Below, in pieces: positions 3,031 through 56,379 of a DNA stretch of 64,000 nt. The DNA comes from an uncultured Prevotellaceae bacterium (GTDB taxonomy: Bacteria > Bacteroidota > Bacteroidia > Bacteroidales > Bacteroidaceae): positions 7,685 to 71,684 of the forward strand of contig CAMOKH010000111.1 of the NCBI GenBank assembly GCA_946617675.1. Reading direction: 5' to 3'. How positions within the stretch are numbered: the first letter of the stretch is position 1; each line of letters begins with the position of its first letter. The notes under the pieces were generated by a model. That model did no database searches and had not been told where the DNA came from. It saw only the letters and a program-made list of their open reading frames with translations. The translations under genes and the position numbers were made by a program.

Positions 3031-5166
3031 ATGTACAAACCACTATTCAACAAGCGCCGCGTGCTGGTGTTCCACCAGTTCAAGAACAAGGGCTGGGCCC
3101 TGTTCGGCTGTCTCGGTCGCGAGGTGGTGTGCTCTGTGCTCTCAGTGGCTACGCTCACTTACGCGTCGGCCGAGAGCGTCAGCACCAAGCCCGTCGTCAC
3201 CGACTCTGCCGCCGTCAGCACGCCGCGCGAACTGCTGCTCGACGAGGTGAGCGTCACCGGAAGCCGAGCGCCCCTGACGCGGAGTCAGGCTGCGAGAATG
3301 GTCACTGTACTGGAGCGTGCCGACATTCAGCAGGCCCCGGTGCAAAGTATTAACGATTTGCTGAAACTGGCCGTAGGCATCGATGTCCGCCAGCGCAGTC
3401 CCATTGGCGCGCAGACCGACATCAGCATTCGGGGCGGCACTCAGGAGCAAATCATCGTACTGCTCAACGGCATCAACATCTGCGACCCGCAGACCGGCCA
3501 CAACACGCTCGACCTGCCCTGCCAATTGAGCGACATCCTGCGCATCGAAGTGCTCGAGGGACCTGCCGCCCGCATCTACGGCACGTCGTCGCTCGTAGGA
3601 GCCATCAATATTGTGACAAAAGAAGACCCCTCCCCTGCCTCCCCTGAAGGGGAGGAGCTATTGCTCCTGCGCGCCGAGGGCGGCTCCCACGGTTACGCCA
3701 ACGCCGCAGCACGGATACTGCTCCCTCCCTTTAGGGAGGGCCGGGGTGGGTCTTCCCTTTCCGCCTCCTACACCCGCAGCGACGGCTGGAGCCGTGCCGC
3801 CAACGGCACGCTGAACAGCGACTACTGCGGCACGAAGGCCTTCTACCAGGGCAGCTACGCCAAGAACGCACTGCGGCTAAACTGGCACGTGGGACTCGCC
3901 GACAAGGGCTGGGGCTCGTCCACCGCCTACGCCTCGCCCAAGTGGAAGGCCGACGACCAGTATGAGCACACCACCAAGCTCACCGCCGCCCTCCAAGCCT
4001 CTGTCAAGTCTGGTGCAGTATCACTGCACCCCACCGTCTACTGGAACCAGCACCAGGACCGCTACGAGGGCTACCGGGGGCGCACCGACCTCATGCCCTT
4101 CAACTACAACCGCACCGACGTCATCGGCCTGCAGCTGAACAGCCACTTCGACTGGGCACTGGGGCGCACGGCACTGGGCGCCGAGATGCGTAACGAGAAC
4201 CTGCTGAGCGGCAACCTCGGCGAGCCTCTCGCCCGACCCCACCACATCTACGGCACCGACCGCGACTACACCCGCGGACTGAACCGCACCAACATCAGCG
4301 CCTACGCCGAGCATAACGTGCTGCTGAGGAACCTGACCATCTCGGCCGGATTCGTCGTGGTGAAGAACACCTGGGCCGACATGAACCCCACGTTCTATCC
4401 CGGCATCGACGCCAGCCTGCGACTGGGCCGGCACTGGCGGCTGCACGCCTCGTACAACACGTCGCTGCGCATGCCCTCGTTCACCGAGATGTACTATAAG
4501 GTGCAGGGCTACGCCGCAGACCCACACCTGAAGCCCGAGGAGATGCGGGCCCTGGAGCTGGGCGCCAATTGCCAATTCTCAATTCTCAATTGTCAATTGT
4601 CTCTTTGGCACCACCACGGCCGCAACATGATCGACTGGATCATGGACACCCGCCTGGGCGACGATGCCGTCTGGCAGAGCGTCAACCACACGCGTCTCAA
4701 TAGCGTCGGTCTTGAGACGTCGGCCCAATTGTCGATTCTCAATTCTCAATTGTCAATTAGCTACAGCTACATCCATCAGGCTAAGGACCTGGAGGCTGGC
4801 GTCGTCTCGCAGTACGCCCTGGAATACCTGCGTCACAAGCTCGTGGTAGGCGCCCACATCCCCCTGCTCCGCCTCCCGTCCGCCGCCTCCCGCCAAGGGT
4901 CCGCTGTGCTGCAGCGGTGCCGCAGCCACCTCACCCTCGATGCCAGCCTCCGTTTCCAAGACCGCGCCGGGCAGTACACCGACTTCGACGGCTCCGCCAA
5001 CGACTACAGCCCCTACCCCCTCGTCGACGCCCGACTGACGTGGCAACAGCCCCACTATGACGTCTACCTGAAGGCCGACAACCTGCTGAACACCCGCTAC
5101 CGCGACTACGGTCTCGTCGAGCAGCCCGGCCGCTGGCTCATCGCCGGCTTCGCACTGCGACTGTAA
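3031..5166 (+). CDS. TonB-dependent receptor (plug plus 22-strand barrel, BtuB/Cir-like)
   Basis: LDEVSVTGSR TonB-box-like segment, ISIRGG, RIEVLEGPAARIYG..GAINIVT plug motifs, DNLLNTRY..PGR C-terminus; ATG 3031 chosen because it follows the promoter. Confidence 0.9.
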   Translation: MYKPLFNKRRVLVFHQFKNKGWALFGCLGREVVCSVLSVATLTYASAESVSTKPVVTDSAAVSTPRELLLDEVSVTGSRAPLTRSQAARMVTVLERADIQQAPVQSINDLLKLAVGIDVRQRSPIGAQTDISIRGGTQEQIIVLLNGINICDPQTGHNTLDLPCQLSDILRIEVLEGPAARIYGTSSLVGAINIVTKEDPSPASPEGEELLLLRAEGGSHGYANAAARILLPPFREGRGGSSLSASYTRSDGWSRAANGTLNSDYCGTKAFYQGSYAKNALRLNWHVGLADKGWGSSTAYASPKWKADDQYEHTTKLTAALQASVKSGAVSLHPTVYWNQHQDRYEGYRGRTDLMPFNYNRTDVIGLQLNSHFDWALGRTALGAEMRNENLLSGNLGEPLARPHHIYGTDRDYTRGLNRTNISAYAEHNVLLRNLTISAGFVVVKNTWADMNPTFYPGIDASLRLGRHWRLHASYNTSLRMPSFTEMYYKVQGYAADPHLKPEEMRALELGANCQFSILNCQLSLWHHHGRNMIDWIMDTRLGDDAVWQSVNHTRLNSVGLETSAQLSILNSQLSISYSYIHQAKDLEAGVVSQYALEYLRHKLVVGAHIPLLRLPSAASRQGSAVLQRCRSHLTLDASLRFQDRAGQYTDFDGSANDYSPYPLVDARLTWQQPHYDVYLKADNLLNTRYRDYGLVEQPGRWLIAGFALRL
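3622..3755. repeat. Inverted pair of REP-like CCCTCCC-N4-GGGAGGG elements inside the TBDR
   Basis: Left arm gacccctcccctgcctcccctgaaggggaggag; right arm ctccctccctttagggagggccggggtgggtc; encode EDPSPASPEGEE and LPPFREGRGGS. Confidence 0.8.
4566..4758 (+). repeat. Two CAATT(C/G)T heptamer arrays inside the TBDR (4566-4600, 4726-4758)
   Basis: caattgccaattctcaattctcaattgtcaattgt and caattgtcgattctcaattctcaattgtcaatt; encode NCQFSILNCQL and QLSILNSQLSI. Confidence 0.8.
4903..4927 (+). repeat. 25-nt hairpin element, second copy at 27302-27326
   Basis: gctgtgctgcagcggtgccgcagcc differs at one position from the reverse complement of 27302-27326. Confidence 0.7.
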
Positions 5167-5189
5167 CCGACAACGAAGCAGAACCTGCT

Positions 5190-5352
5190 TTTCCTGCACA
5201 GGACCAGCGCCCGCGACGAGCGGCACTTCAGAGGCATAAAGCAGGCCTTTACAGGTTTTCCCACGGCCTGGGACAAATGTTCCAGGCCGTGGGAACGCTC
5301 TTTTGGCGCCTCCAACCGGCAGGCTTCAAGCCCCCATTCTGCCTCAGTGCAG
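5190..5352. repeat. Degenerate copy of the dispersed element at 38803-39030
   Basis: Core palindrome ttcccacggcctgggacaaatgttccaggccgtgggaa plus tcctgcac...tcagtgcag ends; lies between convergent genes. Confidence 0.7.
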
Positions 5353-5413
5353 CTTCCTGTGCGATTCATTAACACATAGCCCACTGAACAAAGCAACAGA
5401 GTTGCCATTGGCG

Positions 5414-5833
5414 TCAACTTAGAATATGAAACAGGCTCAAACCGAACAACAATCCACCTCCAAGCACACAAATAAACGAGCCTAAAAAGGTGAAAAATCC
5501 TATCGCTATCCATTCAGGGATTGTAACAGTTTTGTCAAACTGCGGCCACAGGCTTTTATCTGGGCTTTCCAATCCCATTTTATTCACATACCTATGTGTT
5601 AAGAAAAAGACACAGCCTGCAATCAAAATGGGAATAACAACTATATAGTCAAAATAGTTTCTGACAAACAAAAAAGTTGGTATAGATGCTATAGCTAAAG
5701 AAATGCCTAACTCAAATCCGACGATGATGTCAATGATTAACCCCCAGGCAAAGTCTCCCTTGCGCTTTGTTTGGTTTATCCACCTCTCAGTATTGGAGTA
5801 CGCGTAATATATTTTATTGAAAAAAAGTTTCGT
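5414..5833 (-). CDS. Low-GC small membrane protein; frame open back to the dnaA stop, start uncertain (ACG 5833 or TTG 5671)
   Basis: Manual translation of 5857-5414 gives no stop: ..TKLFFNKIYYAYSNTERW..FAWGLIIDIIVGFELGISLAIASIPTFLFVRNYFDYIVVIP..; several hydrophobic segments. Confidence 0.55.
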   Translation of the reverse strand, partial: TKLFFNKIYYAYSNTERWINQTKRKGDFAWGLIIDIIVGFELGISLAIASIPTFLFVRNYFDYIVVIPILIAGCVFFLTHRYVNKMGLESPDKSLWPQFDKTVTIPEWIAIGFFTFLGSFICVLGGGLLFGLSLFHILS

Positions 5834-10787: not shown

Positions 10788-10803
10788 AATATATTATATT
10801 CGC

Positions 10804-10831
10804 TTATTACTTATTACTTATTACTTATTAC
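10804..10831. repeat. TTATTAC heptamer x4 overlapping the stop codon of the upstream gene
   Basis: ttattacttattacttattacttattac. Confidence 0.85.
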
Positions 10832-14300: not shown

Positions 14301-14345
14301 TTTGGGAGTTTAGGAGTTTAGGAGTTTAGGAGTTTGGGAGTTTAG
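14301..14345. repeat. TTT(A/G)GGAG octamer x5.5 supplying the anSME stop codon
   Basis: tttgggagtttaggagtttaggagtttaggagtttgggagtttag. Confidence 0.85.
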
Positions 14346-21583: not shown

Positions 21584-21715
21584 TTTATTGATTAGTTTTG
21601 TTTGTTTTAGCGCAGAATACGGTGCAAAAGTACTAATTATTTTCCAAACGGCGGCAGTTTTTCCCAGAAAATGTGTAACTTTGTGCCCTCAAATTTGCTA
21701 ACAATACTTCAAAAT

Positions 21716-23248
21716 ATGACAAGAGCAACCCTTTCGGTCGTCTTTGCCCTGCTTTTTTCGCTGGCACCGGCCAATGCTGCAACCCGCCAGAAAGGCCCCG
21801 GATGCTGGCGTACGGCGACAGCCCGACAGAAGGCTGCGGCCCGCATGGCCGTGAAGCGACCCGTTGACATCGGCGAGCGCACCAACTACCGTGGACAGAA
21901 GCGCGGACTGGTCATCCTGGCCGAGTTTTCCGACACGAAATTCAAGGACACCCACAATCGCGCTAAGTACAACGACATTCTCAATTCGCCGGGCTACACC
22001 ACCAACGAGGGATTCCGAGGCAGTGTGGCCGACTATTTCCGCGACCAGTCGGCAGGCCTGTTCGAACTGCAGTTCGACGTCGTCGGCCCCTACACCACGA
22101 AACACAGCTACCGTTACTACGGCAAGAACGACGACGAGGGCCTGGACCTCTATCCGCAGGACATGATCGAGGAGATGTGCATCGCTGCCGACGGCGAGGT
22201 CGACTTTAGCAATTACGACTGGGACGGCGACGGCATCGTCGACGAGGTGTTCGTGCTCTACGCCGGCAAGGGCGAAGCCGACAACTCGCCCAGCAAGCCC
22301 GACCTCGTCTGGCCTCACATGTGGACGCTCTCCGAAGCCAACGGAGCACCGCTACGACTCGACGGCGTCGATATTGACGTCTATGCCTGCGCCAACGAAC
22401 TGGCGGCCGATGGCACCATCAACGGCATCGGCACCTTCTGCCACGAGTTCTCTCACTGCATGGGGTTCCCCGACTTCTACGACATTAACTACGGCGACAG
22501 CTACGGCATGGGCGACTACGACCTGATGTCGGGCGGCAACTACGCCGGCAACGGGTTCCTGCCTGTGGGCTACACGGCCTACGAGAAGATGGTCTGCGGC
22601 TGGCAGGAGCCTGTCGTGCTGGGCCATGAGGATGTCAGCGTCGACAGCCTGAAACCCATCAGCGAGCATGGCGACACCTACATCATCTACAACGACGGCT
22701 GTCCCGACGAGTACTACATGATAGAGAACCGCCAGCGCACGGGCTGGGACGCCCGCTACCCCTCGCGGGGACTGCTCATCACGCATGTCGACTTCGATGC
22801 CGAGGTGTGGTTCAATAACATTCCCAACACCATAATGACCGATGAGGAGGCTTACGAAATGGAGCTGACCTGCGGCAACGACCACCAGCGCATGACGTTC
22901 TTCCACGCCGACAACACCGAGGACGACTACTCGACACGCACCGACCTCTACCCCTACGGCACGCGCGACTCGCTAACGACCACCTCGCGGCCGGCAGCCA
23001 AGCTCTTCAATAATAATTCGGAGGGGCAGAAGCTCATGCAGGGCGCCATACTCAACATCAAGCAGAACAGTGACGGCACGATGGCCTTCAGCTACCGCGC
23101 ACCGAAAGCCATCGCCGACGCCATCACCCAGCACCCAGCACCCGACACCCAGCACCCGACACCCTTCTACGACCTCCAAGGCCGCAGGGTCAGCAGGCCG
23201 GTGCGTGGGCTTTACATCGTCGGTGGCCGGAAGGTGGTTGTCCGCTAA
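21716..23248 (+). CDS. M6 family (immune inhibitor A-like) metalloprotease with C-terminal secretion tail
   Basis: GSVADYF, WPHMW, GTFCHEFSHCMGFPDFY, DLMSGG, YDLQGRRV..GLYIVGGRKVVVR. Confidence 0.9.
   Translation: MTRATLSVVFALLFSLAPANAATRQKGPGCWRTATARQKAAARMAVKRPVDIGERTNYRGQKRGLVILAEFSDTKFKDTHNRAKYNDILNSPGYTTNEGFRGSVADYFRDQSAGLFELQFDVVGPYTTKHSYRYYGKNDDEGLDLYPQDMIEEMCIAADGEVDFSNYDWDGDGIVDEVFVLYAGKGEADNSPSKPDLVWPHMWTLSEANGAPLRLDGVDIDVYACANELAADGTINGIGTFCHEFSHCMGFPDFYDINYGDSYGMGDYDLMSGGNYAGNGFLPVGYTAYEKMVCGWQEPVVLGHEDVSVDSLKPISEHGDTYIIYNDGCPDEYYMIENRQRTGWDARYPSRGLLITHVDFDAEVWFNNIPNTIMTDEEAYEMELTCGNDHQRMTFFHADNTEDDYSTRTDLYPYGTRDSLTTTSRPAAKLFNNNSEGQKLMQGAILNIKQNSDGTMAFSYRAPKAIADAITQHPAPDTQHPTPFYDLQGRRVSRPVRGLYIVGGRKVVVR
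23125..23164 (+). repeat. CACCC(AG/GA) heptamer array in the linker before the secretion tail
   Basis: cacccagcacccagcacccgacacccagcacccgacaccc encodes TQHPAPDTQHPTP. Confidence 0.8.
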
Positions 23249-25711: not shown

Positions 25712-26515
25712 TTATGATTTATATTTCTGCAGTAGTGCGTCGGCCCTGGCGCGGGTGTCGGCCAGGAAACGGCGGTACTCGTCACTGTCAGGGTTGAAGG
25801 GGCGATGGCCCAGGGCTGCCTTCAGCGGTGCCCATTCGCGCAGGAATTGCTTGGCCCGGGGCGAGAAGTAGTGCTCCACCAGTTGTTGCCAGATGAACTC
25901 AACGGCCACCGCTGACGGGTGGAGCATGTCGTCGGCATAGAAGCGGTAGTCGCGCAACTCGTCGAGCACGATTTCGTAGGCGGGGAAGTAGGTGAGGTGA
26001 GCAGTAAGAGGTGAGAGACAAGAGATGACCTGATTAACGGCAAGGAGGAGGGTGGCTTTCGAGAGCTGGCTCCCGTGGTAGCCATACTTGCGATAACGGA
26101 TGGGGCTGACGGTCAGGACGACATGGACGTCGGGACGACGGCTGACGAGCAGGCTGACGGCACGGCGCAGGTAGTCGGCACACTCGTCGACGCTGAGCAG
26201 TTCCTCCTGGAACAGCGCGGCGGGGCGCTTCTGGCAGTTATCTACAATCTCGCCCGTCTCGCGGAGACGGTAGACGTGGTTGGTGCCCAGGGTGATGAAT
26301 GCCACGCGGGGGGCTCCCTCGTAGCGCTCCACGGTGTGCAGCACCGAGGCGGGGTTGTACATCGTGCCGTAGGGGTTTACCGCAGCGCGGAACTGCTCGT
26401 CCTGGAAGCGCAGGCCAATGCTGTCGGCAAAGCAGCTGCCCACGAAGAGCATCTCCTCAAGGGGTTCTATCTGGAACTCCGGCGTCGGTATGTCTACTAT
26501 GGTTCGGAACTCCAT
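25712..26515 (-). CDS. GSCFA domain protein
   Basis: VGSCFA motif, TVSPIR, YFPAYEIVLDELRDYRFY..DMLHPS. Confidence 0.9.
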   Translation of the reverse strand: MEFRTIVDIPTPEFQIEPLEEMLFVGSCFADSIGLRFQDEQFRAAVNPYGTMYNPASVLHTVERYEGAPRVAFITLGTNHVYRLRETGEIVDNCQKRPAALFQEELLSVDECADYLRRAVSLLVSRRPDVHVVLTVSPIRYRKYGYHGSQLSKATLLLAVNQVISCLSPLTAHLTYFPAYEIVLDELRDYRFYADDMLHPSAVAVEFIWQQLVEHYFSPRAKQFLREWAPLKAALGHRPFNPDSDEYRRFLADTRARADALLQKYKS

Positions 26516-29205
26516 CAGCTACGGCTCATTTGCAAACCGCTCTTAGAGAGCGTCATGTCGACGAAGCGGGCATTGGCGTTGCGGCGGTTCTCGTTGAGTA
26601 TGGTCTTGATACGTGCGGCAGCCTCGGGGTCTTTGGCTACCATGTAGAGGAAGCCGCCACCTCCGGCTCCGGGTAGCTTGTAGCCCAGGCAGAGGTCGTC
26701 GACGAGGGCGGTCAGCGCCGCCACCTCGGGCGGGTTGGTACCGCTGTCGAGCAGCTGGTTCTGCTGCCACGTCTTGCCGACGAGCAGGCCCATCGTCCGG
26801 AAGTCCTGCCGCAGGATGGCATCGTACATGTCCATCGTGTGCTGCTTCATCTGGCGCAGCAGGAGCAGCTGGTCGTGCTCGTTGAGGAACATGCGGCGCA
26901 CGATCTCGGCCAGTATCTTCTTGGCCGTGCGGGTGATGCCCGTATAATATAACAGGTGGCACTGCTGATACTCGGGCTGGGTGTACAGCCCGTCGGGCAG
27001 CCAGCGCACCGAGGGGTTCTGTATGAAGTCACGGCCGGTCTGCAGCAGTTTGACTCCACCCAGCACGCCGCCGAACTGGTCTTGCCAGCCACCACCGGTG
27101 GTGAGCATCTGTTCGAGGATGAGCGTGCGGTAGCCTATCTCGTTCTTGTCCCAGCCCAGCTGGCAGAAGTCGCTGAGGGCTCCGAGGACGGTGGCAGCCA
27201 GAATGCTCGACGTGCCGAGACCACTACCGGCGGGCACGGCTGAGAGCAACGTCAGTTCAATGCCGCAGCCGAAGGCTTCGAGCTGGGAGCGGAGCGAGGA
27301 GGGCTGCGGCACCGCCGCAGCACAGCCGACAGCAACAGGACTGCCGAAGCCAGCGAGCGTCAGGGCGGCCTTGGGGATTGAGAAGGGCGAGCCCACTTTC
27401 CTATAGTCGGAGAGCTGCTCGTTGGTCTCCACGACTTCAGTGGCTCCGAGGTCGATGCTGCGCAGCACGATGTGGGGTTCGCGGCAGGGCTTGACATAGC
27501 ACTGCAGCGGCGGCTGGCCGTTCAGTTCGATGGCGAGGTTGACGACATTGCCGCCTTCCATCAGACAATAGGGCGGCGTGTCGGTCCATCCGCCGGCGAT
27601 GTCGATGCGCACAGGGGAGCGCGCCCAGACAATCTGGTCGGGGAAAGCCTCACCCCCGCCCCCTCTCCAATGGGAAAGGGGAGTAAAATGCTTAACGGCA
27701 GTATCAGCAGCAGAGTAATCACTCCCCTCTCCCCTTGGAGAGGGGCTGGGGGTGAGGCTTTCCCGCAACAGCTCAAACGCCCGCTCGCTGTCGCCACGAA
27801 ACATGGCATCGTGGATGCGCGTCATCAACGGAGCGTCGGCGGGCAGGGGCGGCGGCAGGGGAATGTTCTCCCGGGCAAACTGCTCGGCGGCATCGGCCAG
27901 GTCGAGTTGATAGAAGACGGAGTGCTGCCAGTTGCGGGCCAGGGCCGGCCAGTTCTCGCGGCGGAACAGGCGCCGCTGCTCGAAGAGGCGGTGCAGGTTG
28001 GCACGCTCGGCCACAGCGTTGCTGTCTACGGGGTCGTCTATATGGTAGCGGCGCACCTCGTAGTCGCTGTCGCCCACGGGCACGACGTCGATACACTCGC
28101 CGGGGGCGAGGGTGATGTCCCAGTCGTTGCGCGGCACGCCGGTGATGACGTGGTCGTGACTGAGGTGCCAAGTCTTGGGTATGTGTGAGTTCTCTATCCA
28201 GATGTTCGTATTCTGCTCGTTGAACGTCACCTCGGTGACGGCGTTCTGCACGAAGATGCTGGGGTGCGGCTTACGGTCGAGGTGCATAATCTGCCGCTGG
28301 TCGCTCACCAGGTTCTGCAAGGCGAGCGTCGACGAGATCATCTCGCGCGACGTGCCGAAGTGGTAGAACTCACCGCCCGCCAACGGCAGGATGGCCACAC
28401 TCAAGGAGCGAAGCTCTGCATCGTCAATCGTCGGGTCGGTGCCAAGCGAACAGCCAAACTCAGCATATAAATCGTAAGGAGTTACCACTCCCCTCCCTTC
28501 AGGGAGGGGCTGCGGGTGGGTCTTTTCCATCAGTGCCTTCACCGCCCGGTCGCTGAGCATCCAGATGCCGACGTCGGTCAGGTAGTAGTGGTCCTTCTGC
28601 AGGTCGTTGAGGGTCTGCACCGACGGTTTCTGCAGCATCTGCTTCAGCACGGAGGGCGTCTCGCGACGGCTGACGAACACGCCGTGGTTCTTGGCCGTCG
28701 AGGCCGGCATCCACAGTCCGTAACACACCACGTCGGCATCGGGCACTGGGGGCAGGGGCTGCGTAGCTCGCACGCAGACGTCGCCGCTGACCACCATCGT
28801 GTGGATGTTGTCGGGTGCCATGTCCATCATCTGTCGGTAGAGTGGCAGTTGCATGTCCATCAGCGTCTGACTGAGCCGCTGGCCCCGCTCCCAGCGGAGC
28901 ACGGGCAGAGGCATCAGCACCTTGCCGCTGACGGCATAGCCCGGCAGCCTCCGGCTCTGTCCGCCGGCATGTATCAGTATGCGGTTGTCCTTCGACAGCC
29001 ATGCTTCGAAGTCATCATCTCGCTCACTTCTCACCTCTCCTCTCTCATCTAAACAAGCTTGCTCCAGCAGCCAGGCCGTGCCGCCCCCGCTGCCGAGGCG
29101 GTGGCCCACGGGGTCGCAGGTGCAGAAGTACTCCTCGCGGCTCAGGCCGGAGATGTCATGGAAGCAGTCTACCACATTAGGGGGTAGCGATAGCAGGATC
29201 TTCAT
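26515..29205 (-). CDS. fkp: Bifunctional L-fucokinase / GDP-fucose pyrophosphorylase
   Basis: LGSGGGT, HAGGQSRRLP, PVRIDIAGGWTD, GHMP motif PAGSGLGTSS, GAGGGG. Confidence 0.95.
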   Translation of the reverse strand: MKILLSLPPNVVDCFHDISGLSREEYFCTCDPVGHRLGSGGGTAWLLEQACLDERGEVRSERDDDFEAWLSKDNRILIHAGGQSRRLPGYAVSGKVLMPLPVLRWERGQRLSQTLMDMQLPLYRQMMDMAPDNIHTMVVSGDVCVRATQPLPPVPDADVVCYGLWMPASTAKNHGVFVSRRETPSVLKQMLQKPSVQTLNDLQKDHYYLTDVGIWMLSDRAVKALMEKTHPQPLPEGRGVVTPYDLYAEFGCSLGTDPTIDDAELRSLSVAILPLAGGEFYHFGTSREMISSTLALQNLVSDQRQIMHLDRKPHPSIFVQNAVTEVTFNEQNTNIWIENSHIPKTWHLSHDHVITGVPRNDWDITLAPGECIDVVPVGDSDYEVRRYHIDDPVDSNAVAERANLHRLFEQRRLFRRENWPALARNWQHSVFYQLDLADAAEQFARENIPLPPPLPADAPLMTRIHDAMFRGDSERAFELLRESLTPSPSPRGEGSDYSAADTAVKHFTPLSHWRGGGGEAFPDQIVWARSPVRIDIAGGWTDTPPYCLMEGGNVVNLAIELNGQPPLQCYVKPCREPHIVLRSIDLGATEVVETNEQLSDYRKVGSPFSIPKAALTLAGFGSPVAVGCAAAVPQPSSLRSQLEAFGCGIELTLLSAVPAGSGLGTSSILAATVLGALSDFCQLGWDKNEIGYRTLILEQMLTTGGGWQDQFGGVLGGVKLLQTGRDFIQNPSVRWLPDGLYTQPEYQQCHLLYYTGITRTAKKILAEIVRRMFLNEHDQLLLLRQMKQHTMDMYDAILRQDFRTMGLLVGKTWQQNQLLDSGTNPPEVAALTALVDDLCLGYKLPGAGGGGFLYMVAKDPEAAARIKTILNENRRNANARFVDMTLSKSGLQMSRS
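27641..27764. repeat. 124-nt palindromic element in-frame in fkp
   Basis: 44-nt arms with 4 mismatches (gggaaagcctcaccccc...aggggagt); encodes ESLTPSPSPRGEGSDYSAADTAVKHFTPLSHWRGGGGEAF. Confidence 0.9.
28487..28524. repeat. Single REP-like arm in-frame in fkp
   Basis: actcccctcccttcagggaggggctgcgggtgggtctt encodes KTHPQPLPEGRGV. Confidence 0.85.
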
Positions 29206-31727: not shown

Positions 31728-31777
31728 GTTTCTGCGTGCAAAGGTACGAAAATTTTCGTACCTTTGCACGCAGAAAC
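31728..31777. promoter_or_regulatory. Perfect 50-bp palindrome with divergent -7 elements (yfhO / luxS)
   Basis: gtttctgcgtgcaaaggtacgaaaa|ttttcgtacctttgcacgcagaaac. Confidence 0.85.
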
Positions 31778-34228: not shown

Positions 34229-35752
34229 TTATTTAATCGTTATTCTTATGCCTAATGGTACGGTCACGACGAAGGGGTGCTCCGTCTGCCACGTCTCGAC
34301 GCCGCTGCCGTTGCGGAAGTAGTGCTGCAGACTCGGTTCGACGAAGAAGCCCACGGCGGGCGTCACGTTGTACTCCAGCCCGAGGCCCACGCCCGCTGAC
34401 CACTGCCAACCGGGGCGGAGGCGATCATGACCAGCCTCTACGACTGAACCGTTTATCACATAGCGGCTATCGAGGGTGGAGCGCAGCGGCAGCTGGAGCG
34501 TGACGTTGGCGGCGGCGTTGAGACTGAGCCTCGGCAACAGCTGCTGTCGCCATCCTGCCTGCAGCGGCAGACCAAGATAATGCACGCGCTGCTCCTGCTG
34601 CAACTGGGCAAAGGTATTGCCCGAGGCCAGGCTCGACGACAGCCGCGTGTATTGCAGGCCGAGGCTCACCTGCCAGTGCTTGCCGAGATGGCGGCTGACG
34701 GTCAGCCCGACGGTGAGCGGCAGCCGGTGGTTGGCCACGGAGTCATAGACGGAGGGGTTCATATCCGGGTCGGCGTATGGCAGCCGCGTGTCGTCGCTGC
34801 CGCCCATGCCGCTGTAGGCAAGGGCTACCGTCCACGCTGAGGCGGAGGCGTGTGGCACCGCCACACGACAGCCGACATCCGGGACTGAGGGGCTGACGGT
34901 TGAGGCAGCGGTATCTGGCGCTTCGGTTTCTGCGGCTGCAACGACGGCTGCGATGGCGGCGGTATCTGGCGCTACGGTTTCTGCGACTGCTACGGCAGCG
35001 GTGCTAACGGCAGCAGTGGCGGCTACGACGGCGGTGCTAACGGCATCGGTGGCGGCTACGACGGCGGTTGCAGTATCGCCGGTGCTTACGGTTTCAGCAG
35101 CGGCAATGACAGGTTTCGCGTGTTCGCCTGCGGCATTTATTCCCCTCCCCTCCAGGGGAGGGGCCAGGGGTGGGGTCTTCGTCGTCTTCAACGGCAGCAG
35201 CGCCGCCACGAGCAGCAGCACCATAGGCCGCAGCCACCGCCGCAGCAGCAGCTTGGCACGCGAGAGCTGGGCCGACGACGTGTGGGGCTCAATGCCGAGC
35301 AGGGCGGCAATCTCCTGATGGCTCATGCCGTCGAGCACCGACAGGCGGAACACGCGGCGATAGCTCTGCGGCAGGGCGTCGACCAGGCGCAGAATCTCGT
35401 CGTAACTGACAGCGGCCGGGACGGTGGCGGCTGCCGCCGACAGTGGGCGCTCCAGGTCGTCGAGCGAGACGACGGGCGCCTGGCGCTGCCGATGCTGCCA
35501 GGTGCGCCCCAGATTGTGGACCACCCGCGCCATCCAAGCCTCAGCCTTGGCGGGGTCGTTCACCGTGTCAATCTTACTGAATATCAGCACGAACGCGTCG
35601 TGCAGCAAGTCGTCGGCCGTGGCCTCGTCGGCCACGTAGTGGCGGCACACCCGGCGCAGCCGGTCGTGCATCACGGTGTAGAGCAGTCCGAACGCCTGCT
35701 GGTCGCCCCTCTGGCACCGCTCGACGATTTGCTTGATACTCAGTTCGCCCAT
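34229..35752 (-). CDS. ECF sigma factor fused through a TM helix and Ala/Thr/Val linker to an outer-membrane beta-barrel
   Basis: Sigma2 (DLLHDAF), sigma4 (GMSHQEIAALLGI..SSAQLSRAK), MVLLLVAALLPL, barrel motifs HYLGLPL, WQWSAGVGLGLEY, FVEPSLQHYF. Confidence 0.85.
   Translation of the reverse strand: MGELSIKQIVERCQRGDQQAFGLLYTVMHDRLRRVCRHYVADEATADDLLHDAFVLIFSKIDTVNDPAKAEAWMARVVHNLGRTWQHRQRQAPVVSLDDLERPLSAAAATVPAAVSYDEILRLVDALPQSYRRVFRLSVLDGMSHQEIAALLGIEPHTSSAQLSRAKLLLRRWLRPMVLLLVAALLPLKTTKTPPLAPPLEGRGINAAGEHAKPVIAAAETVSTGDTATAVVAATDAVSTAVVAATAAVSTAAVAVAETVAPDTAAIAAVVAAAETEAPDTAASTVSPSVPDVGCRVAVPHASASAWTVALAYSGMGGSDDTRLPYADPDMNPSVYDSVANHRLPLTVGLTVSRHLGKHWQVSLGLQYTRLSSSLASGNTFAQLQQEQRVHYLGLPLQAGWRQQLLPRLSLNAAANVTLQLPLRSTLDSRYVINGSVVEAGHDRLRPGWQWSAGVGLGLEYNVTPAVGFFVEPSLQHYFRNGSGVETWQTEHPFVVTVPLGIRITIK
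35139..35180. repeat. Single REP-like arm in-frame in the sigma fusion
   Basis: tcccctcccctccaggggaggggccaggggtggggtcttc encodes KTPPLAPPLEGRGI. Confidence 0.85.
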
Positions 35753-38802: not shown

Positions 38803-39030
38803 TCCTGCACTTCCTGCACTGAGCCTCATTTCCAGCAGGTTAGGGCAATCTGGGCAATGACGATCCTGCACTGGAAGTTGCACTTTACCTGCACTGGACT
38901 ACGGACGGCACGCCAAGGACGAAAAGCGGCGCTTTACAAGCGTTCCCACGGCCTGGGACAAACGTCCCAGGCCGTGGGAACGCCCGAAAGGCGCCGCCAA
39001 AAGGAATAAGTCAGTGCAGGAAGTGCAGGA
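38803..39030. mobile_element. 228-bp MITE-like element with perfect 20-bp terminal inverted repeats
   Basis: tcctgcacttcctgcactga ... tcagtgcaggaagtgcagga; internal palindrome gcgttcccacggcctgggac-aaac-gtcccaggccgtgggaacgc; T-runs on both flanks. Confidence 0.65.
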
Positions 39031-41896: not shown

Positions 41897-43234
41897 TTAC
41901 ACTTCAGTGCCTAAATGGAAGATTTTCTCGTCGAAATCACGGGCGCCGCCCTCCTCCTTGAACAGGTTGGCGAGCAACCGTCGCTTCTGATTGGTCACCG
42001 CCTGAGGCGACTTACCCAAAAGGACGGAGAGCTCGGAAGGGAGGAAGTGCAACCTGACGAGCATACAGAAGACGAGATTCTGGCTTGAGACAGACACGCC
42101 ATATTGGTGCAGGGCAGAAACGAACTTCGGCATGCTGCCCTCAACGAACAGCTTGAGCCGCTGCAGCTCGCCGTCGGTGGCTTGATGGCCCAACGAGGCA
42201 CTCTTGTGCAAATCGCTCACGATGGGCGATGAGAGCGGTTCGGACGAATCGTCCCATAAAGCGTCGGGCGACAGCTCGGCCAGTCGCAGCCTGACATCGG
42301 CAAGCTGCTGTTCTACTACTGCTTTTTCCTCCACCTGACGGCTCAGACGGTCACATTCTGCCCGCAGCTCGTTATAGCGCGCCAGCTCAAGGGCATAGCG
42401 GGTGTTGACTTCCCTGAGCTGCCTGTGCATTCGCCGGCGATAATAGCCGTAAAGCACGAAGGCACCGACGAAAAGCACGATGCCGACGACGGCAGTGTAG
42501 AGTTGCCGGGTGGCCATCTGCTCCTGCTTCTTCCGCTCGTCCTGCCTATGGCGGAAGAAGTTGGTGATGACGTCGGGCGAGAACACTTTTACGTGCGATC
42601 CGCCCATGAAGTCGGGGTCGGTGATGCCAGGGTGAGCCACGACCCTCATGACGGTTACGCCCGTTGCGGCATTGACAAGGGCCAGCGTGTCAGCCTGCCG
42701 ACGCATCCACGTAAATTCTGCAAGGCTATCCGTTCTCTGGCGATGCTTGGAGGCGACAAGTATCAACTGGCGGCAGTTGTACTGAAACAGCGTGTCGCCA
42801 CAGCGTTCAGCATAGCGTTCGGCCATGCGGAGATCCCTGATGCCGCTCTCTACCACCTGCAGTGAATCCGTATCATCCTGAAACTGGACGTATTGCTTAC
42901 CGATGTAGGCATACAGACGTGACATCATACGCAGATTGGCGGTATCAGCTGTTGAGAGTGCCTCGCGGTAACACAGGAGCGCCATCGACACTTCGCCCAT
43001 GACATCGTAAGCCCGGCCCAGGAGATAATAAGACTGGGTACGCTCGGAGGGGGTTCCGTAGATACTGAAATAATCGACAAGCGACAAGGGGATACTGTCG
43101 CTTGTAAACCATTGGTGGCAGGAGTCATAACGGACGGCCTCAGCCAACAGGCCCTGCATCTGACGATGGACCTGACGGTCGCTACAGGCGAGGAGCCCGG
43201 CCACGAATGCTGCAGCTACGACCAGCCGTCTCAT
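41897..43234 (-). CDS. Membrane-anchored TPR sensor with C-terminal HTH-type DNA-binding region
   Basis: YYLLGRAY TPR, central TM helix, coiled coil, CMLVRLHFLPSELSVLLGKSPQAVTNQKRRL. Confidence 0.75.
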   Translation of the reverse strand: MRRLVVAAAFVAGLLACSDRQVHRQMQGLLAEAVRYDSCHQWFTSDSIPLSLVDYFSIYGTPSERTQSYYLLGRAYDVMGEVSMALLCYREALSTADTANLRMMSRLYAYIGKQYVQFQDDTDSLQVVESGIRDLRMAERYAERCGDTLFQYNCRQLILVASKHRQRTDSLAEFTWMRRQADTLALVNAATGVTVMRVVAHPGITDPDFMGGSHVKVFSPDVITNFFRHRQDERKKQEQMATRQLYTAVVGIVLFVGAFVLYGYYRRRMHRQLREVNTRYALELARYNELRAECDRLSRQVEEKAVVEQQLADVRLRLAELSPDALWDDSSEPLSSPIVSDLHKSASLGHQATDGELQRLKLFVEGSMPKFVSALHQYGVSVSSQNLVFCMLVRLHFLPSELSVLLGKSPQAVTNQKRRLLANLFKEEGGARDFDEKIFHLGTEV

Positions 43235-45144
43235 CAGTGCTTGATGTTGGCCTTCTTGCGCTGGTCGTGGTCGAGTATGACCTTACGCATGCGCATCGAC
43301 TTGGGCGTCACCTCGACGAGCTCGTCCTCCTTGATGTACTCCAGGCACTCCTCGAGCGACATGACGGTCTTGGGGATGATGCGGGCCTTGTCGTCGGTAC
43401 CCGAGGCACGGACGTTGGTCAGCTGCTTGGCCTTGCAGACGTTGATGACGAGGTCGTTGTCGTGGACGTGCTCGCCGACGACCTGGCCCAGGTAGACCTC
43501 CTCGCCGGGGTCGATGAAGAAGCGGCCGCGGTCCTGCAGCTTGTCGATGGCGTAGGCGTAGGCGGTGCCCGTCTCGAGGGCGATCATCGAACCGTTGACG
43601 CGGCGCTCAATCTCGCCCTTGTAGGGCTGGTACTCCTTGAAGCGGTGGGCCATGATGGCCTCGCCCTGACTGGCCGTCAGCACGTTGGTGCGCAGGCCGA
43701 TGATGCCGCGCGAGGGTATGTCGAACTCGATGTTGGTGCGCTCGCCCTGGCTCTCCATCGACGTCATCTCGCCCTTGCGGCGCGTCACCATGTCGATCAT
43801 CTTCGAGGCGAACTCCTCGGGCACGTTGATGGTCAGCTCCTCGATAGGCTCGCACTTGATCAATTGAGAATTGAGAGTTGAGGATTGAGAATTATGATTA
43901 CCTGCTTCAGCAGTGTTTCCGCCCTTGGAGTTATCATAATTCTCCATTTTCAATTCTCCATTCTCCATTCGTCCGTAACGGTAGATGACCTGCGGCTGTC
44001 CCACCTGCAGCTCGTAGCCCTCGCGGCGCATGGTCTCGATGAGCACCGAGAGATGGAGCACGCCACGGCCGGAGACGACCCACTTGTCGGTGGAGTCCTC
44101 GAACTGCTCGACGCGCAGGGCCAGGTTCTTCTCGAGCTCGCGTGCCAGACGGTCGCTGATGTGGCGCGAGGTGACGAACTTACCCTCGCGGCCGAAGAAG
44201 GGCGAGTCGTTGATGGTGAAGAGCATCGACATCGTCGGCTCGTCGATGGCGATGGGCGGCAGCGGCTCGGGCTGCTCAAGGTCGCAGATGGTGTCGCCAA
44301 TCTCGAACCGTTCCAGACCGATGACGGCGCAGATGTCGCCGCAGTCCACCTGGTCGGTGCGCTGGTGGCCCATGCCGTCGAACGTATGCAGCTCCTTGAT
44401 CTTCGTCTTCTCCTGCGTACCGTCGCGGTGGGCGATGGTCACCTGCTGACCGTCGCGCAGCGTGCCACGGTGGACGCGGCCCACGGCGATGCGCCCCGTG
44501 TAGCTCGAGTAGTCGAGCGAGGTGATGAGCATCTGGGGCGTGCCCTCTATCTGCTTCGGGGCGGGAATCACCTCGATAATCTTATCTAATAAATAGGTAA
44601 TGTCAGTGGTGGGCTTGTTGTAGTCCTCGCCCATCCAGCCGTTCTTGGCCGAACCGTAGACGACGGGGAAGTCGAGCTGGTCCTCGGTGGCATTCAGTGA
44701 GAACATCAAGTCAAAGACCATCTCGTAGACCTCCTCGGGGCGGCAGTTGGGCTTGTCGACCTTGTTCACCACGACGATGGGCTTCAGTCCGATCTCGAGG
44801 GCCTTCTGCAGCACGAAGCGCGTCTGCGGCATCGGACCCTCGAAGGCGTCGACCAGCAGCAGGCAGCCGTCGGCCATGTTGAGCACGCGCTCCACCTCGC
44901 CGCCGAAGTCCGAGTGTCCCGGCGTGTCGATGATGTTAATCTTCGTGCCCTTCCAGTTGATGGAGACGTTCTTCGAGAGGATGGTGATGCCACGCTCGCG
45001 TTCGAGGTCGTTGGCGTCGAGTACTTGGTTGCTGAGGTCCTGGCCTTCGCGAAAGAGGTTTCCGGCCAGCATCATCTTGTCCACGAGTGTCGTCTTACCG
45101 TGGTCTACGTGCGCAATAATCGCAATGTTTCGGATATCCTGCAT
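43234..45144 (-). CDS. typA: Translational GTPase TypA/BipA
   Basis: [41 protein letters not shown]. Confidence 0.97.
43861..43970. repeat. Heptamer-based palindromic element in-frame in typA
   Basis: caattgagaattgagagttgaggattgagaattatgat ... atcataattctccattttcaattctccattctccattc. Confidence 0.88.
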
Positions 45145-45177
45145 AAGTCGTTTTCTTGAAATCGGCTGCAAAGGTAC

Positions 45178-46270: not shown

Positions 46271-46846
46271 ATGAAGAAGTTATACACACTACTGGCCATG
46301 CTGCTGACCATTACGGCCACGGCAACCTTTACCGCCTGCGACTGGGACGACGACAGCGCAATAGCATACACCCTGGAAGGGACCTGGAAGGGCAATATGT
46401 ACGTGAACACATACTACAACGGCAACACCTACTACGCCACGGCAACGGAGATAACCTTCCTGCGCGACCCCTACCGCTACTCAAGCGGCGACGGCTACTG
46501 GGTGGACTACTACTCGAGGGCGCCGTGGGACTATGTGGCTAACCACATCCGCTGGACGGTGAACTACGGCCGCATCCACGTCTACTTCGTCGAGGAGGGC
46601 ACCGAGATGGAAATCTACAACTACCGTCTGAACGACAACCGCTTCACGGGTTACATTGCCGAGTACGACAACGACGTGGAGTTCAGCCTCTACCACGTGT
46701 CGTCGCCCAACTGGAGCAGCTACCGCTGGGGCTACGATGCCTGGTATGACAACGACTACTACTGGTCGCGCCAGACGCGCGGTGACGAGGCCGACACCAC
46801 GACGGTCGGGAAGCCCGTCAGGAGAATCCAGAAGGTCAACGACTAA
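46271..46846 (+). CDS. Hypothetical lipoprotein
   Basis: Lipobox FTAC followed by an acidic DWDDD segment; LEGTWKG; own TATCTTTGCA promoter. Confidence 0.8.
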   Translation: MKKLYTLLAMLLTITATATFTACDWDDDSAIAYTLEGTWKGNMYVNTYYNGNTYYATATEITFLRDPYRYSSGDGYWVDYYSRAPWDYVANHIRWTVNYGRIHVYFVEEGTEMEIYNYRLNDNRFTGYIAEYDNDVEFSLYHVSSPNWSSYRWGYDAWYDNDYYWSRQTRGDEADTTTVGKPVRRIQKVND

Positions 46847-47003
46847 ATACCGGCTACGATTAAATACTGACTACGATTAAATACTGACTACGATTAAATA
46901 CTGACTACGATTAAATACTGACTACGAATTTCACGAATTATACGAATTTGGCCGTGGCTGACGGTGACCTGCGGCGATTCGTATAATTCGTAAAATTCGT
47001 AGT
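46844..47003. repeat. 17-bp tandem repeat x5 fused to a 27-bp inverted repeat
   Basis: (taaatactgactacgat)x5 at 46844-46928; arms 46921-46947 and 46977-47003 with one mismatch. Confidence 0.9.
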
Positions 47004-47029
47004 CGTATTCCCGGAATCCGTAGTAGTCC

Positions 47030-53939: not shown

Positions 53940-53946
53940 CATACAA

Positions 53947-53990
53947 CGCCCGCATCGACATTGCCATTCCGGCAAATATCGACGCGGGCG
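53947..53990. terminator. Hairpin between the convergent radical SAM and lpxA-like genes
   Basis: cgcccgcatcga...tcgacgcgggcg. Confidence 0.5.
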
Positions 53991-54029
53991 ACTATAAGGA
54001 TAGAGGAGTAGGCGCGCGGGCGCTACGGG

Positions 54030-54806
54030 CTACATCCTTGAGATGACGCCGAGCCTGGTGGCGCGGAGGAACTCGATGATGTGGCGGATCTCCGGACCGT
54101 CGGGCACCTGCTGCTCAATCTGCAGGATGGCGTCGAAGAGCGACGTACCACCGTTGAACACCAGACGATAGGCGTTGGCAATGTGCTTCAGCGTCTTCTC
54201 GTCGACCCCATGCTGACGACCTACGGCGAAGTTCACACCGCCGTAGGTATTTTTATTCGTAGCCACGATGTAAGGCGGAACGTCGCGCGAGAAGGAGGTG
54301 CCGGCCTGGACCATCGACCCCCTGCCGACGCGCGTGCCGGCATTCTCGATGACCGACGACGAGAAGATGACGCTGTCCTCAATCTCGCAGTCGCCGGCAA
54401 TCTTCGTGCCATAGCCGAAGACGCAGCGGTTGCCGACCTTCGTGTCGTGCGAGATGTGGGCACCCTCCATGAGCACGTTCTCGTTGCCGATGACGGTCTG
54501 TCCGCCGGTGTGGGTAGCACGGTTGACGACGACATTCTCGCGGAAGATGTTGCCGTCGCCGATGATGCACTCCGACTTCTCGCCGCGGAACTCGAAGTCC
54601 TGCGGCAGGGCACCGATGACCGAGCCCTGGTGGACTTTGTTTCCCTTACCCATGCGCGTACCGCTACATATACTGACGAACGGGAAGATGATGCAGTTGT
54701 CACCTATCACCACGTCGTCCTCGATGTAGACAAAGGGGAATATCTTACAGTTGTTGCCGATTCTAGCCTTTGGGCTGATTTCGGCTTTCGGACTTATATC
54801 TGACAT
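54030..54806 (-). CDS. LpxA-like hexapeptide-repeat acyltransferase (paralogue)
   Basis: Left-handed beta-helix repeats, PQD, RE, GAHISHD, DVPPY. Confidence 0.85.
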   Translation of the reverse strand: MSDISPKAEISPKARIGNNCKIFPFVYIEDDVVIGDNCIIFPFVSICSGTRMGKGNKVHQGSVIGALPQDFEFRGEKSECIIGDGNIFRENVVVNRATHTGGQTVIGNENVLMEGAHISHDTKVGNRCVFGYGTKIAGDCEIEDSVIFSSSVIENAGTRVGRGSMVQAGTSFSRDVPPYIVATNKNTYGGVNFAVGRQHGVDEKTLKHIANAYRLVFNGGTSLFDAILQIEQQVPDGPEIRHIIEFLRATRLGVISRM

Positions 54807-54890
54807 AATTATAATGTTTTTTTGCAGCTGACAACAGGACTAAGACGACTTCTTTTAAGTCCTTAAGTCCTGTCGTCCGCTGCTTAATTA

Positions 54891-56291
54891 TTACTTTGCT
54901 CCGCCGCCTAAGGCCTGGTAGAGGTTGACGACAGCCTGCATCTTGTTAAACTGGTCGGTGACCTCCGAGATTTCGGCGTTGAGCAGGTTCGACTGCGCCG
55001 AGATGACCTCGAGATAGGTTGTGTTCGAGCTTGACTCCATCAGCTTCTTCGTGTCCTCGACGTTCTTTCTGAGCACCTCGACGCGCTTGGTGTCGAGCTT
55101 GCCCTTCTCGGCCGAGGCGTTGTAGGTGACGAGGGCGTTGCTGACCTCGTTGCCAGCCTTGAGCACGGTGTTCTGCCAGGTATTGTAGGCCTGTTCATAC
55201 TGCAACTTGGCCACCTTCAGTCCGGCAACAATCTGCCCGTGCTGGAAGATGGGCTGCACCAGTCCGGCGACAGCCGACCAGAGCATCTTGCCGGGGTTCA
55301 CCATGCCATTGTTGTTGGTGAAGGCTCCGGTGCCGCTGATGGTGATGCTGGGGTAGAAGCGCGAGCGGGCCTGCTGGACGTCGTAGAAGCACTGGGCCAG
55401 AGCCATCTCAGAGGCATGGACGTCGGCGCGGTTGTTGAGCAGCTGGACGCTGACGCCCGTTGCAAACTGCGACGGCAGCGACTGGTCGGCGAGCCGTCCG
55501 CGCTTGATGGCCTGGGCGGGATGTCCGATGAGCAGCGAGAGCGAGTTCTCCATCTCGCGCACCTGGCGCTGCAGGTCGACCTTCTGAGCCTGTACGGAGT
55601 AGTAGGCAGCCTCGGCGCTCTGGACGGCGGTCGAGCGGTAGCCCACGCGGTTCTCGTGCATGAACTGCATCTTCTCCCACGTCTCCTTGGTCAGCTGTTC
55701 CATGTCGCCGACAATCTCAATCTGGCGGTCGAGCATGAGCAGCGTATAATAGAGGTTGGCGATGCCCGAGACGATGCCGCACTGGGCAGCCACCTGATAG
55801 TCCTTGGTAGCCATGAGCTGCATCTGGGCCGACCGTTTGGCATTGAGCAGGTTGCCGAAGAGGTCGAGATTCCACGATGCCGAGACAGGCAGCTGGTAGG
55901 ACTTCGTCGACGGGTTGTCAGAGAACTTGGCTATCGTGCCCTGCGGCGAGAAGACGACGGAGGGCAGGAAGGCCAGACGGGCCACCTTCAGCCCCTCGTT
56001 GACCATCTGGACGTTGAGGGCAGCGTTCAGCAGGTCGGGGTTCTTCTCCAGTCCCTGCTCGATGAGCAGCTGCAGCTGAGGGTCAGTGAACAGCTGTCGC
56101 CAGGGCAGGTTGCCGAACGACGTGGTGTCGGTCGTCTGCAGTGCTCCGTTCTGGGCCAGCGGGTCGCGGACGATACCGTCGGCGACGACCTCCGGCCGCT
56201 CGTACTTGTTGTAAAGGCCGCAGCTGGACAAAAGGAGGCAGAACAAGCCCACCCCAACCCCTCCCCAAGGGAGGGGCTTGTGATTAGTCAT
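54891..56291 (-). CDS. RND outer-membrane factor (TolC/NodT lipoprotein)
   Basis: Lipobox LLLSSC, SWNLDLFG, RADV, NLYQALGGG. Confidence 0.92.
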   Translation of the reverse strand: MTNHKPLPWGGVGVGLFCLLLSSCGLYNKYERPEVVADGIVRDPLAQNGALQTTDTTSFGNLPWRQLFTDPQLQLLIEQGLEKNPDLLNAALNVQMVNEGLKVARLAFLPSVVFSPQGTIAKFSDNPSTKSYQLPVSASWNLDLFGNLLNAKRSAQMQLMATKDYQVAAQCGIVSGIANLYYTLLMLDRQIEIVGDMEQLTKETWEKMQFMHENRVGYRSTAVQSAEAAYYSVQAQKVDLQRQVREMENSLSLLIGHPAQAIKRGRLADQSLPSQFATGVSVQLLNNRADVHASEMALAQCFYDVQQARSRFYPSITISGTGAFTNNNGMVNPGKMLWSAVAGLVQPIFQHGQIVAGLKVAKLQYEQAYNTWQNTVLKAGNEVSNALVTYNASAEKGKLDTKRVEVLRKNVEDTKKLMESSSNTTYLEVISAQSNLLNAEISEVTDQFNKMQAVVNLYQALGGGAK

Positions 56292-56379
56292 ACAGCCAAA
56301 TATTGGTTTAAATCTTAATGCTATCATAATAGTAAGTCATTCTAAACATCCCTCCCTTTGGGAGGGCTTGGGTGGGCTT
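56245..56379. repeat. Inverted REP-like pair straddling the tolC start codon
   Basis: aagcccaccccaacccctccccaagggagggg ... ccctccctttgggagggcttgggtgggctt. Confidence 0.85.

Follow-up and report, generated by a model that had tools for sequence, protein, structure and literature searches.

How do palindromic repeats of several families come to lie, in frame, inside intact protein genes of a rumen bacterium? The question is raised by a window of 64,000 nucleotides (nt), positions 7685-71684 of contig C111 in the genome G000, a metagenome bin of 2.14 Mb in 117 contigs that is 56% complete and has 58% G+C; its TypA relatives are rumen Prevotella. A sequence-only reading of this window had placed three repeat families, termed here A, B and C, in open reading frames (ORFs), had called them unrelated and had proposed a trans-mobilised system that adds peptide segments to housekeeping proteins. 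The three families are indeed found in frame in intact ORFs, genome-wide and far above chance as judged by shuffled controls, and all host ORFs confirmed by Pfam matches (TonB-dependent receptor (TBDR), Fkp, ECF-sigma/OMP-barrel fusion, TolC, TypA, GSCFA and M6 peptidase) stay open through the repeats. What are they? Probably, they are the gene-less arms of a nuclease-associated selfish repeat system that is tolerated in protein loops; they would represent gene-less copies of small arm-gene-arm cassettes that are located elsewhere in the same Prevotella genome.

The unit of family A is an arm of ~45 nt, consisting of an inner box (GGTAAYCAC, GGTATCTAC or GGTAAYCAAACA), a C-rich stem, a loop of 4-5 nt, the complementary G-rich stem, ~3 nt, a third G-rich run and YCTT. 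The order of a C-rich stem, its G-rich complement and another G-rich block, seen in numerous dispersed copies that are nearly identical, is that of the intrastrand triplex motif BoxC/PIT/TM_ECO, which has the consensus CCCTCNCCC-N3-6-GGGNGAGGG-N3-GGGNGAGGG (Holder et al., 2015, PMC4666352). The motif is reported to be always intergenic in E. coli, unlinked to mobile elements and devoid of a partner gene (PMC4666352), whereas family A is 55% in frame in genes, forms inverted pairs and brackets DUF559 nuclease genes. The G-rich runs could form a G-quadruplex as an alternative to a triplex. A detector was set to find a pyrimidine stem followed by a loop, the purine complement of the stem and one more G-rich run; it reports 141 arms in the 2.1-Mb genome vs. 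1 in a Markov-shuffled genome. Eight arms are in the window: 3626-3656(-), 3722-3751(+), 27651-27681(-), 27724-27754(+), 28489-28521(+), 35141-35176(+), 56247-56276(-) and 56349-56377(+). A pattern with fixed gaps has 3 matches in the window vs. 0.01 expected, and a looser one has 90 in the genome and 0 in the reversed control. Neighbouring arms that are at most 520 nt apart are mostly in the -+ orientation, with G-rich ends outward (44 vs. 13 in all other orientations combined); when grouped, the arms of G000 make up 46 pairs and 49 solos. Spacers of pairs have no similarity between loci, with the exception of those that hold a DUF559 gene. Other arrangements are also seen. At G000:C98:27371-27788, overlapping nested pairs of two arm subfamilies surround 310 nt of G+C-rich coding sequence in a 516-amino acid (aa) ORF, and in a closed genome of the genus (G047:C1, e.g. 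294764-295143 and 371604-371985) triplex arms follow one another head to tail at a 44-nt period, in tandem runs of up to ~9 copies, an arrangement that is rare in G000.

How are the arms distributed with respect to genes? Copies were classified by coding potential and the frame of both flanks, with calibration on random intervals; this flank-based classifier replaced a first gene caller, which had missed overlapping genes. Fifty of 90 family A units (55%; 24 pairs and 26 solos) are open, in frame and have coding sequence on both flanks, vs. 64% of random 33-nt intervals treated in the same way; thus there is hardly any depletion of family A from genes. Where both flanks of a pair are coding and co-directional, they are in different frames in 12 cases and in the same frame with a stop in six, which is the 2:1 split expected for unrelated adjacent genes, and there is therefore no excess of frame-breaking intragenic copies. 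The host frame stays open through all copies that were assigned to the interior of a gene. Relative to this frame, arms are found in all six classes of frame and orientation, and no stop codon is present in any frame of the two arm consensus sequences that were read. As selfish repeat DNA, the arms settle in those loops and linkers of proteins that are permissive. Recurring peptides were confirmed (THPQPLPxGRGV, SPSPSEGG, ASPSGGGLEGA and the NSQLSI type); PLPxGRG, NSQLSI and the other encoded peptides appear to be tolerated passengers.

Are there genes that could act on the arms? The window was said to hold no mobilising gene; the candidate partner genes are all outside it. Also borne out is the suggestion that nuclease genes may be flanked by the same arms. 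Each of the four DUF559 genes of G000 has inverted family A arms on its two sides, of a subfamily peculiar to that gene; both four-helix-bundle genes (PF05635) are between inverted tandem arrays, and both GxxExxY genes (one at C55:3405-3734) are between inverted arms of another type. The arms at all of these genes belong to families with dispersed copies. The arrays around the four-helix-bundle gene of contig 86 (C86:14808-15122) consist of AATTGAC/AATTGAG, the same unit as in typA and in the TBDR (family B; for the latter, the array at 4566-4601), while the C6 gene has arrays of an 8-base unit (AATTGAAG). The system would accordingly be built of three pairings: triplex-motif (BoxC/PIT-type) arms with genes of the DUF559 nuclease (Vsr-like, PD-(D/E)XK), heptamer arrays with four-helix-bundle genes (the 23S-rRNA-IVS-protein family), and another hairpin with GxxExxY nuclease genes. 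The catalytic block E-x-D-G-G-x-H is kept in three of the four DUF559 copies, and that of C103 reads EIDGEYH. The closest solved relatives of DUF559 are PDB 3HRL and, distantly, the Vsr-like (EDxHD) homing endonuclease I-Bth0305I (3R3P, E = 0.003), also a selfish nuclease that invades essential genes; the latter is carried in a group I intron that is spliced out, whereas DUF559 cassettes are read through in frame between hairpin arms. A description of a DUF559/hairpin system was not found in the searchable literature, and by title and abstract none of the 25 papers found to mention DUF559 is on repeats.

The association of nuclease and arms extends to the genus. In 60 other species, family A-type arms are on both sides of 19 of 27 DUF559 loci and on at least one side of 23, where the baseline for arms beside genes is 2 of 1587 predicted genes of G000. 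In a set of genomes from 61 species of the genus, two or more arms (median ~27) are present in all 23 genomes with full-length DUF559 and two or more in nine of 38 without it (Fisher 8e-10; Spearman 0.78 for arm counts), although these co-occurrence statistics overstate the association, as the genomes are related and not independent. With the sample confined to the 21 genomes of at least 98% completeness, seven or more arms are present in each of the 11 that have full-length DUF559, and of the 10 without it, nine have none and one (G023, with fragments only) has four.

Could the arms be recognition sites rather than selfish repeats? A small GIY-YIG nuclease, Ssn, is flanked by hairpin repeats in Neisseria and cuts the repeats in single-stranded DNA (Chenal et al., 2025, PMC11893778). 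If the present arms were sites of a domesticated site-specific nuclease of this sort, they would mark DNA for transformation, recombination or repair control, and would spread mainly by homologous recombination between strains and not by nuclease mobilisation. The Ssn nucleases with their NTS and SRM repeats are the nearest published layout, i.e. a single-domain nuclease gene between dispersed hairpins whose abundance tracks the gene (PMC11893778), and the flanking on both sides at all four loci here and at 19 of 27 in the genus, the hundreds of dispersed hairpins and the arm counts that follow nuclease presence match it; recombination could also exchange filled and empty alleles such as those of typA described below. 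However, the nuclease families differ (GIY-YIG vs. Vsr-like PD-(D/E)XK DUF559, PF04480), as do the repeats, and only 2% of NTS are intragenic vs. the 55% of family A units in frame in genes. In addition, DUF559 cassettes are present in frame in many unrelated genes, and different arm families are at the same loops across lineages, so that new sites must be created somehow. This explanation is the most serious of the alternatives, but it is unlikely.

The protein loops themselves offer an insight into how arms come and go. In the TBDR, the two family A arms bracket native sequence, and both CAATT(G/C)T arrays replace strand codons with length unchanged, whereas the 18-aa insertion with the family C hairpin is unique to G000 (0 of 15 orthologues). 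The two loops that carry family A arms in G000 have inverted GGTGAAG arrays in G070, GTGGAAT/ATTCCAC in G065, another repeat in G017, a CAATTGT array on one side in G015 and nothing in G024. In the G072 orthologue (C61:34650-35150), nested layers of arms are on both sides of the native barrel hairpin, all in frame: two triplex-type arms and a short tandem array on the left and two arms on the right. Families A and B thus occupy the same loop pairs in orthologues with the same inverted-pair layout, and are not fully unrelated. The fkp gene gives a similar picture. Its family C hairpin is missing in homologues P0022-P0024, P0026-P0028 and P0031. Its solo arm is present in homologues at 83-99% identity and the site is empty at 85% (P0012/P0014) and in others, with ~49 nt in place of ~19 nt. 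Its heptamer-derived segment is found only in homologues that are at least 93% identical, and P0022 has a full hairpin at this site. At the inter-domain linker of fkp, an allele with 94.5% identical DNA (P0002) has a different arm subfamily and an unrelated spacer, and other homologues have heptamer arrays. A native origin of the spacer in this linker pair was considered; the evidence is ambiguous, the P0002 spacer being unrelated. The arm of the sigma fusion is in a variable low-complexity linker past the membrane helix, where G070 carries a different tandem repeat. Family A was also assigned to tolC, and arms are present there, but the pair straddles the start codon, so that only one arm is translated, as KPLPWGGVGVG in the signal peptide, while its partner is in intergenic DNA. 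Orthologues that carry the same peptides without the palindromes were thus not what was found; they lack the peptides or have other repeats at the same loops. There is fast gain, loss and replacement of arms at fixed loops.

The typA gene adds an empty site within the species. Most Prevotella have a short loop here (QPQVIYK-EIDGQ-KCEP), which is empty, G000 has 35 extra residues, and at least six other species have other elements, both triplex-type and heptamer-type. Contigs from a sheep-gut run and from one RNA library match the typA flanks at ~99% identity (1 mismatch in 248 nt) and are free of the element; the empty allele joins 43857 to 43981 via 18 nt (K-EIDGR), i.e. 123 nt are in place of 18 nt, and the target is not duplicated. 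Strains that are almost identical thus differ in whether they carry the element. Four public runs were compared with typA; in their RNA contigs the filled element was not bridged, and matches inside it ran into other loci.

A cassette with its gene can also reside in a housekeeping protein. In a CCA-adding/HD enzyme, the reading frame of the HD domain continues through the 447-nt DUF559 cassette of contig 76. Among public homologues the cassette is present in 39 out of 120, and it is absent from this place in all 58 genus representatives. At the same left junction are found fused arms without a gene (P0168), a solo left arm (P0195) and the first 11 nt of an arm (G070), and further homologues have different triplex-type or heptamer hairpins in the loop or, in a few, a short plain loop. 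The series with its shared junction indicates that at least some gene-less pairs and solos are products of the decay, in place, of full cassettes, from cassette to arm-arm to solo arm. On a host-only tree, DUF559 presence at this locus requires 19 changes vs. a mean of 33 and a minimum of 25 when shuffled; it is clustered on the tree, with frequent gain or loss. The 11 nt that the 'empty' G070 site shares with the arm terminus were first read as target microhomology; after the series, a deletion remnant is at least as likely. The enzyme (L003:472-2445, G000:C76) holds three repeat-derived inserts in one ORF, a solo triplex arm at about residue 74, a small SSPEG...APSGAVGG hairpin at about residue 140 and the DUF559 cassette.

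How do arms arrive? DNA alignments with relatives at PyrG (two pairs) and at a contig-36 glycosidase-like gene and its neighbour show that every arm overwrites 12-30 nt of a variable loop, with no target duplication; none was found at typA, fkp or CCA junctions either. The PyrG spacer keeps 135 nt of essential host sequence, including GGTMRLG. Host-derived spacers are present in the TBDR, both PyrG pairs and two contig-36 pairs, and the other host-derived stretches are a short ATTCC-CGG, CGAGGCTG and one host bit that is tandemly triplicated. Native spacers, overwritten host bases and the absence of target duplications argue against transposition of the type shown by miniature inverted repeat transposable elements (MITEs). 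To judge from these alignments, the arrival of arms would fit templated repair or template switching better.

It is for these reasons improbable that the repeats are classical non-autonomous transposons of the MITE or REPIN type, ready-made units moved by a transposase or RAYT encoded in the unassembled 44% of the genome. The compact inverted pairs of 75-150 bp with similar arms do look like such units, the typA and fkp elements resemble unit insertions, and in a 56%-complete genome an enzyme may have been missed. As in REP/REPIN-RAYT systems (PMC3733652), there are short palindromes, often in inverted doublets, and a partner gene flanked by the same repeats. But the internal sequence is unconserved, spacers being unrelated, and in the TBDR and PyrG the coding sequence between the arms is native and conserved; nor are the repeats extragenic, and the arm listings have no GTAG/CGTC tag. 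RAYT genes had been named among those to be sought between the arms; no match to a Y1 (HUH) transposase/RAYT (PF01797) was found in G000, which in a genome of this completeness is a weak negative. The proposal of a trans-mobilised system that adds peptides therefore survives in part. Orthologue alignments show that the repeats add or replace peptide segments in housekeeping proteins, but movement of a ready-made element is unsupported, with spacers not conserved, native sequence bracketed, host bases overwritten and some copies decaying in place.

Where does the sequence of an arm come from? Partner arms are of the same subfamily (permutation 0 of 5000), and the partner is the closest arm in only seven of 46 pairs, with a closer arm at another locus in 39. 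Each arm thus seems to be drawn from a genome-wide pool and not copied from its partner, and a model in which the second arm is a local inverted copy of the first was rejected as the main recent process. These closer non-partner arms, and the near-identity of arms at unrelated loci to a genome-wide consensus, mean that sequence must be imported, which, with the strong DUF559 co-occurrence, makes it still less probable that repeats grow in place with no trans-acting partner, slippage giving heptamer arrays, palindrome-correcting template switching giving inverted arms, and the small genes merely tolerating or attracting arms. Such growth would agree with heptamer units that differ by lineage at the same loops, the nested layers in G072, the spacer with a tandemly triplicated host segment and arms that overwrite rather than insert. 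A last view is that the repeats are no elements at all, but either low-complexity coding sequence that has converged under selection on the peptides or artefacts in the assembly of a metagenome bin. The position of the Pro/Gly/Ser-rich peptides in loops and the fragmented state of the bin would agree with it, but the DNA recurs in all six frames as well as outside coding sequence, copies are in independent public assemblies and shuffled controls give about zero, so that this can be dismissed as very improbable.

We return to a nuclease-associated selfish repeat system. In its proposed cycle, the nuclease would recognise a folded arm and nick nearby, and new arms would be written by template-copying repair, gene-conversion or template-switch-like, and not by cut-and-paste of a ready-made element. 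The usual outcome of arm writing would be two inverted arms with a short piece of the pre-existing DNA between them. Several points weigh against this interpretation, in addition to the relatedness of the genomes already mentioned. The arm association could reflect regulation or targeting instead of mobilisation, the activity of the proteins on arms being a prediction. Simple local copying does not explain the pairs, given how seldom partners are closest. The fkp spacers, wholly different between 94.5%-identical alleles, may mean that a whole element was exchanged as a unit. Six incomplete genomes have 7-21 arms and no DUF559 was found in them, no partner gene was found for family C, and the gene calls are home-made. 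A broader proposal is that DUF559, four-helix-bundle and GxxExxY genes with their arms constitute an undescribed, non-transposing selfish class, where a small nuclease nicks at a folded arm and the repair that follows 'writes' arms, as inverted pairs, on both sides of DNA already in place, which may be essential coding sequence. It would explain the origin of BoxC/triplex repeats and the bacterial excess of heptamers, but must be considered tentative and rather doubtful.

Families B and C show some features of their own. Period-7 arrays (at least three copies, score of at least 36 in Tandem Repeats Finder (TRF)) number 222 in G000 vs. 20 of period 6 and 29 of period 8. After merging there are 209, with 13% in frame inside genes; the commonest class genome-wide is of arrays at gene ends, 97 of the 209 having one coding flank. 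Window copies are at 4566-4601, 4726-4758, 23121-23164, 25994-26028, 29023-29047, 43862-43893 and 43939-43970. With its tandem 7-base units, family B is like the heptanucleotide repeats of the cyanobacterial STRR class, and the four-helix-bundle gene between inverted arrays (C86, and C6 with 8-base arrays) is like the ORF-bearing intervening sequences (IVS) of 23S rRNA, but here the arrays are within protein genes, not rRNA, and form inverted pairs that flank native coding sequence. The unit of family C, a small REP-like hairpin with 13-18 genome copies, is GGCTGCGGC-NNC-GCCGCAGC-ACAGC; changes in its stems are compensated on both sides, and eight of 13 copies are in frame within coding sequence.

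A precedent for in-frame palindromes is found in Rickettsia, where Ogata and colleagues are said to have described, in 2000, palindromic elements in frame in housekeeping genes that are translated as extra loop peptides. In-frame palindromic insertion in ORFs is common to both. The Rickettsia elements are whole elements with conserved internal sequence, whereas here conservation is limited to the arms, the spacers often consist of host sequence, and there are candidate partner genes. The system differs from its known relatives in nuclease family, in the triplex-type repeat, in the very high share of in-frame intragenic copies and in the presence of arms around native sequence.

The window holds other repeats as well. 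Two 100-nt intergenic copies, 77% identical (5216-5315 and 38901-39000), represent a further repeat family with a long palindrome on TTCCCACGGCCTGGGAC / GTCCCAGGCCGTGGGAA. A gap between two genes (46839-47004) has the 17-nt unit ACGATTAAATACTGACT five times in tandem, followed by inverted 9-mer arrays (ACGAATTTC / ATTCGTAAA), and a perfect 50-bp palindrome without a loop (31728-31777) is between divergent luxS and yfhO-like genes. A period-8 array of 5.6 copies of TTTAGGAG (14301-14345) and four perfect copies of CTTATTA (10803-10831) both abut gene ends. Features and their coordinates are listed in Table 1.

Table 1. Repeat features, host genes and DUF559 genes (window positions, except for DUF559 genes, which are given by contig of G000)
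Feature	Position	Strand	Basis
TonB-dependent receptor (TBDR)	2752-5166	+	Pfam
Family A arm, left of TBDR pair, in frame just past plug domain	3622..3656	-	Detector; ~+7 aa vs. orthologues
Native TBDR sequence between arms (first barrel hairpin, EGGSxGY)	3657..3721	+	Residue-for-residue alignment to 15 orthologues without these arms
Family A arm, right of TBDR pair	3722..3755	+	Detector, fixed-gap pattern, orthologue alignment
Family B array (CAATTGT/CAATTCT) in TBDR barrel strand	4566..4601	+	TRF; gap-free orthologue alignment
Second family B array of TBDR	4726..4758	+	TRF; in frame, both flanks coding
Family C hairpin core in TBDR	4899..4927	+	Repeat search; in 18-aa insertion
M6 peptidase	21671-23248	+	Pfam
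Heptamer array (CCAGCAC) near C-terminus of M6 peptidase ORF	23121..23164	+	TRF, Pfam; placed by coordinates
Period-7/14 array within GSCFA ORF	25994..26028	-	TRF, Pfam; placed by coordinates
Fkp	26515-29205	-	Pfam
Family C hairpin in fkp (GHMP-kinase half), ~+11-13 aa	27302..27330	-	Repeat search, homologue alignment
Family A inverted pair, fkp inter-domain linker	27634..27771	-	Repeat search, detector
Family A solo arm, fkp pyrophosphorylase domain (THPQPLPEGRGV)	28487..28524	+	Detector, fixed-gap pattern
Heptamer-derived fkp segment (DERGEVRSERD)	29023..29047	-	TRF
ECF-sigma/OMP-barrel fusion	34229-35752	-	Pfam
Family A solo arm, ECF-sigma/barrel fusion	35139..35180	+	Detector
TypA	43234-45171	-	Pfam
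Heptamer-armed hairpin element in typA, +35 aa	43858..43980	-	Repeat search; inverted heptamer arms
TolC	54891-56327	-	Pfam
Family A pair around tolC start codon and ribosome-binding region	56245..56379	-	Detector
Gene-less intergenic hairpin	61149..61232	.	Repeat search; arm type as around C55 GxxExxY gene
DUF559 gene	C60:2926-3237		PF04480
DUF559 gene	C70:15711-16022		PF04480
DUF559 gene	C76:32184-32501		PF04480
DUF559 gene	C103:52941-53258		PF04480

What is the significance of these findings? To our knowledge, neither the BoxC/PIT triplex repeats, known since the 1990s, nor heptamer arrays have a known origin or partner. The link to DUF559, a large family whose function is not known, gives these long-unexplained bacterial repeats a testable candidate partner enzyme. 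About half of the family A units are translated in housekeeping proteins (TypA, PyrG, Fkp, the CCA-adding enzyme and outer-membrane receptors), which bears on annotation and on protein evolution, and the same protein loops are re-used across species. The presence or absence of elements varies between near-identical strains, which is of relevance to strain typing in rumen metagenomes. Arms that surround native DNA with no target duplication are unexplained by known mechanisms of transposition.

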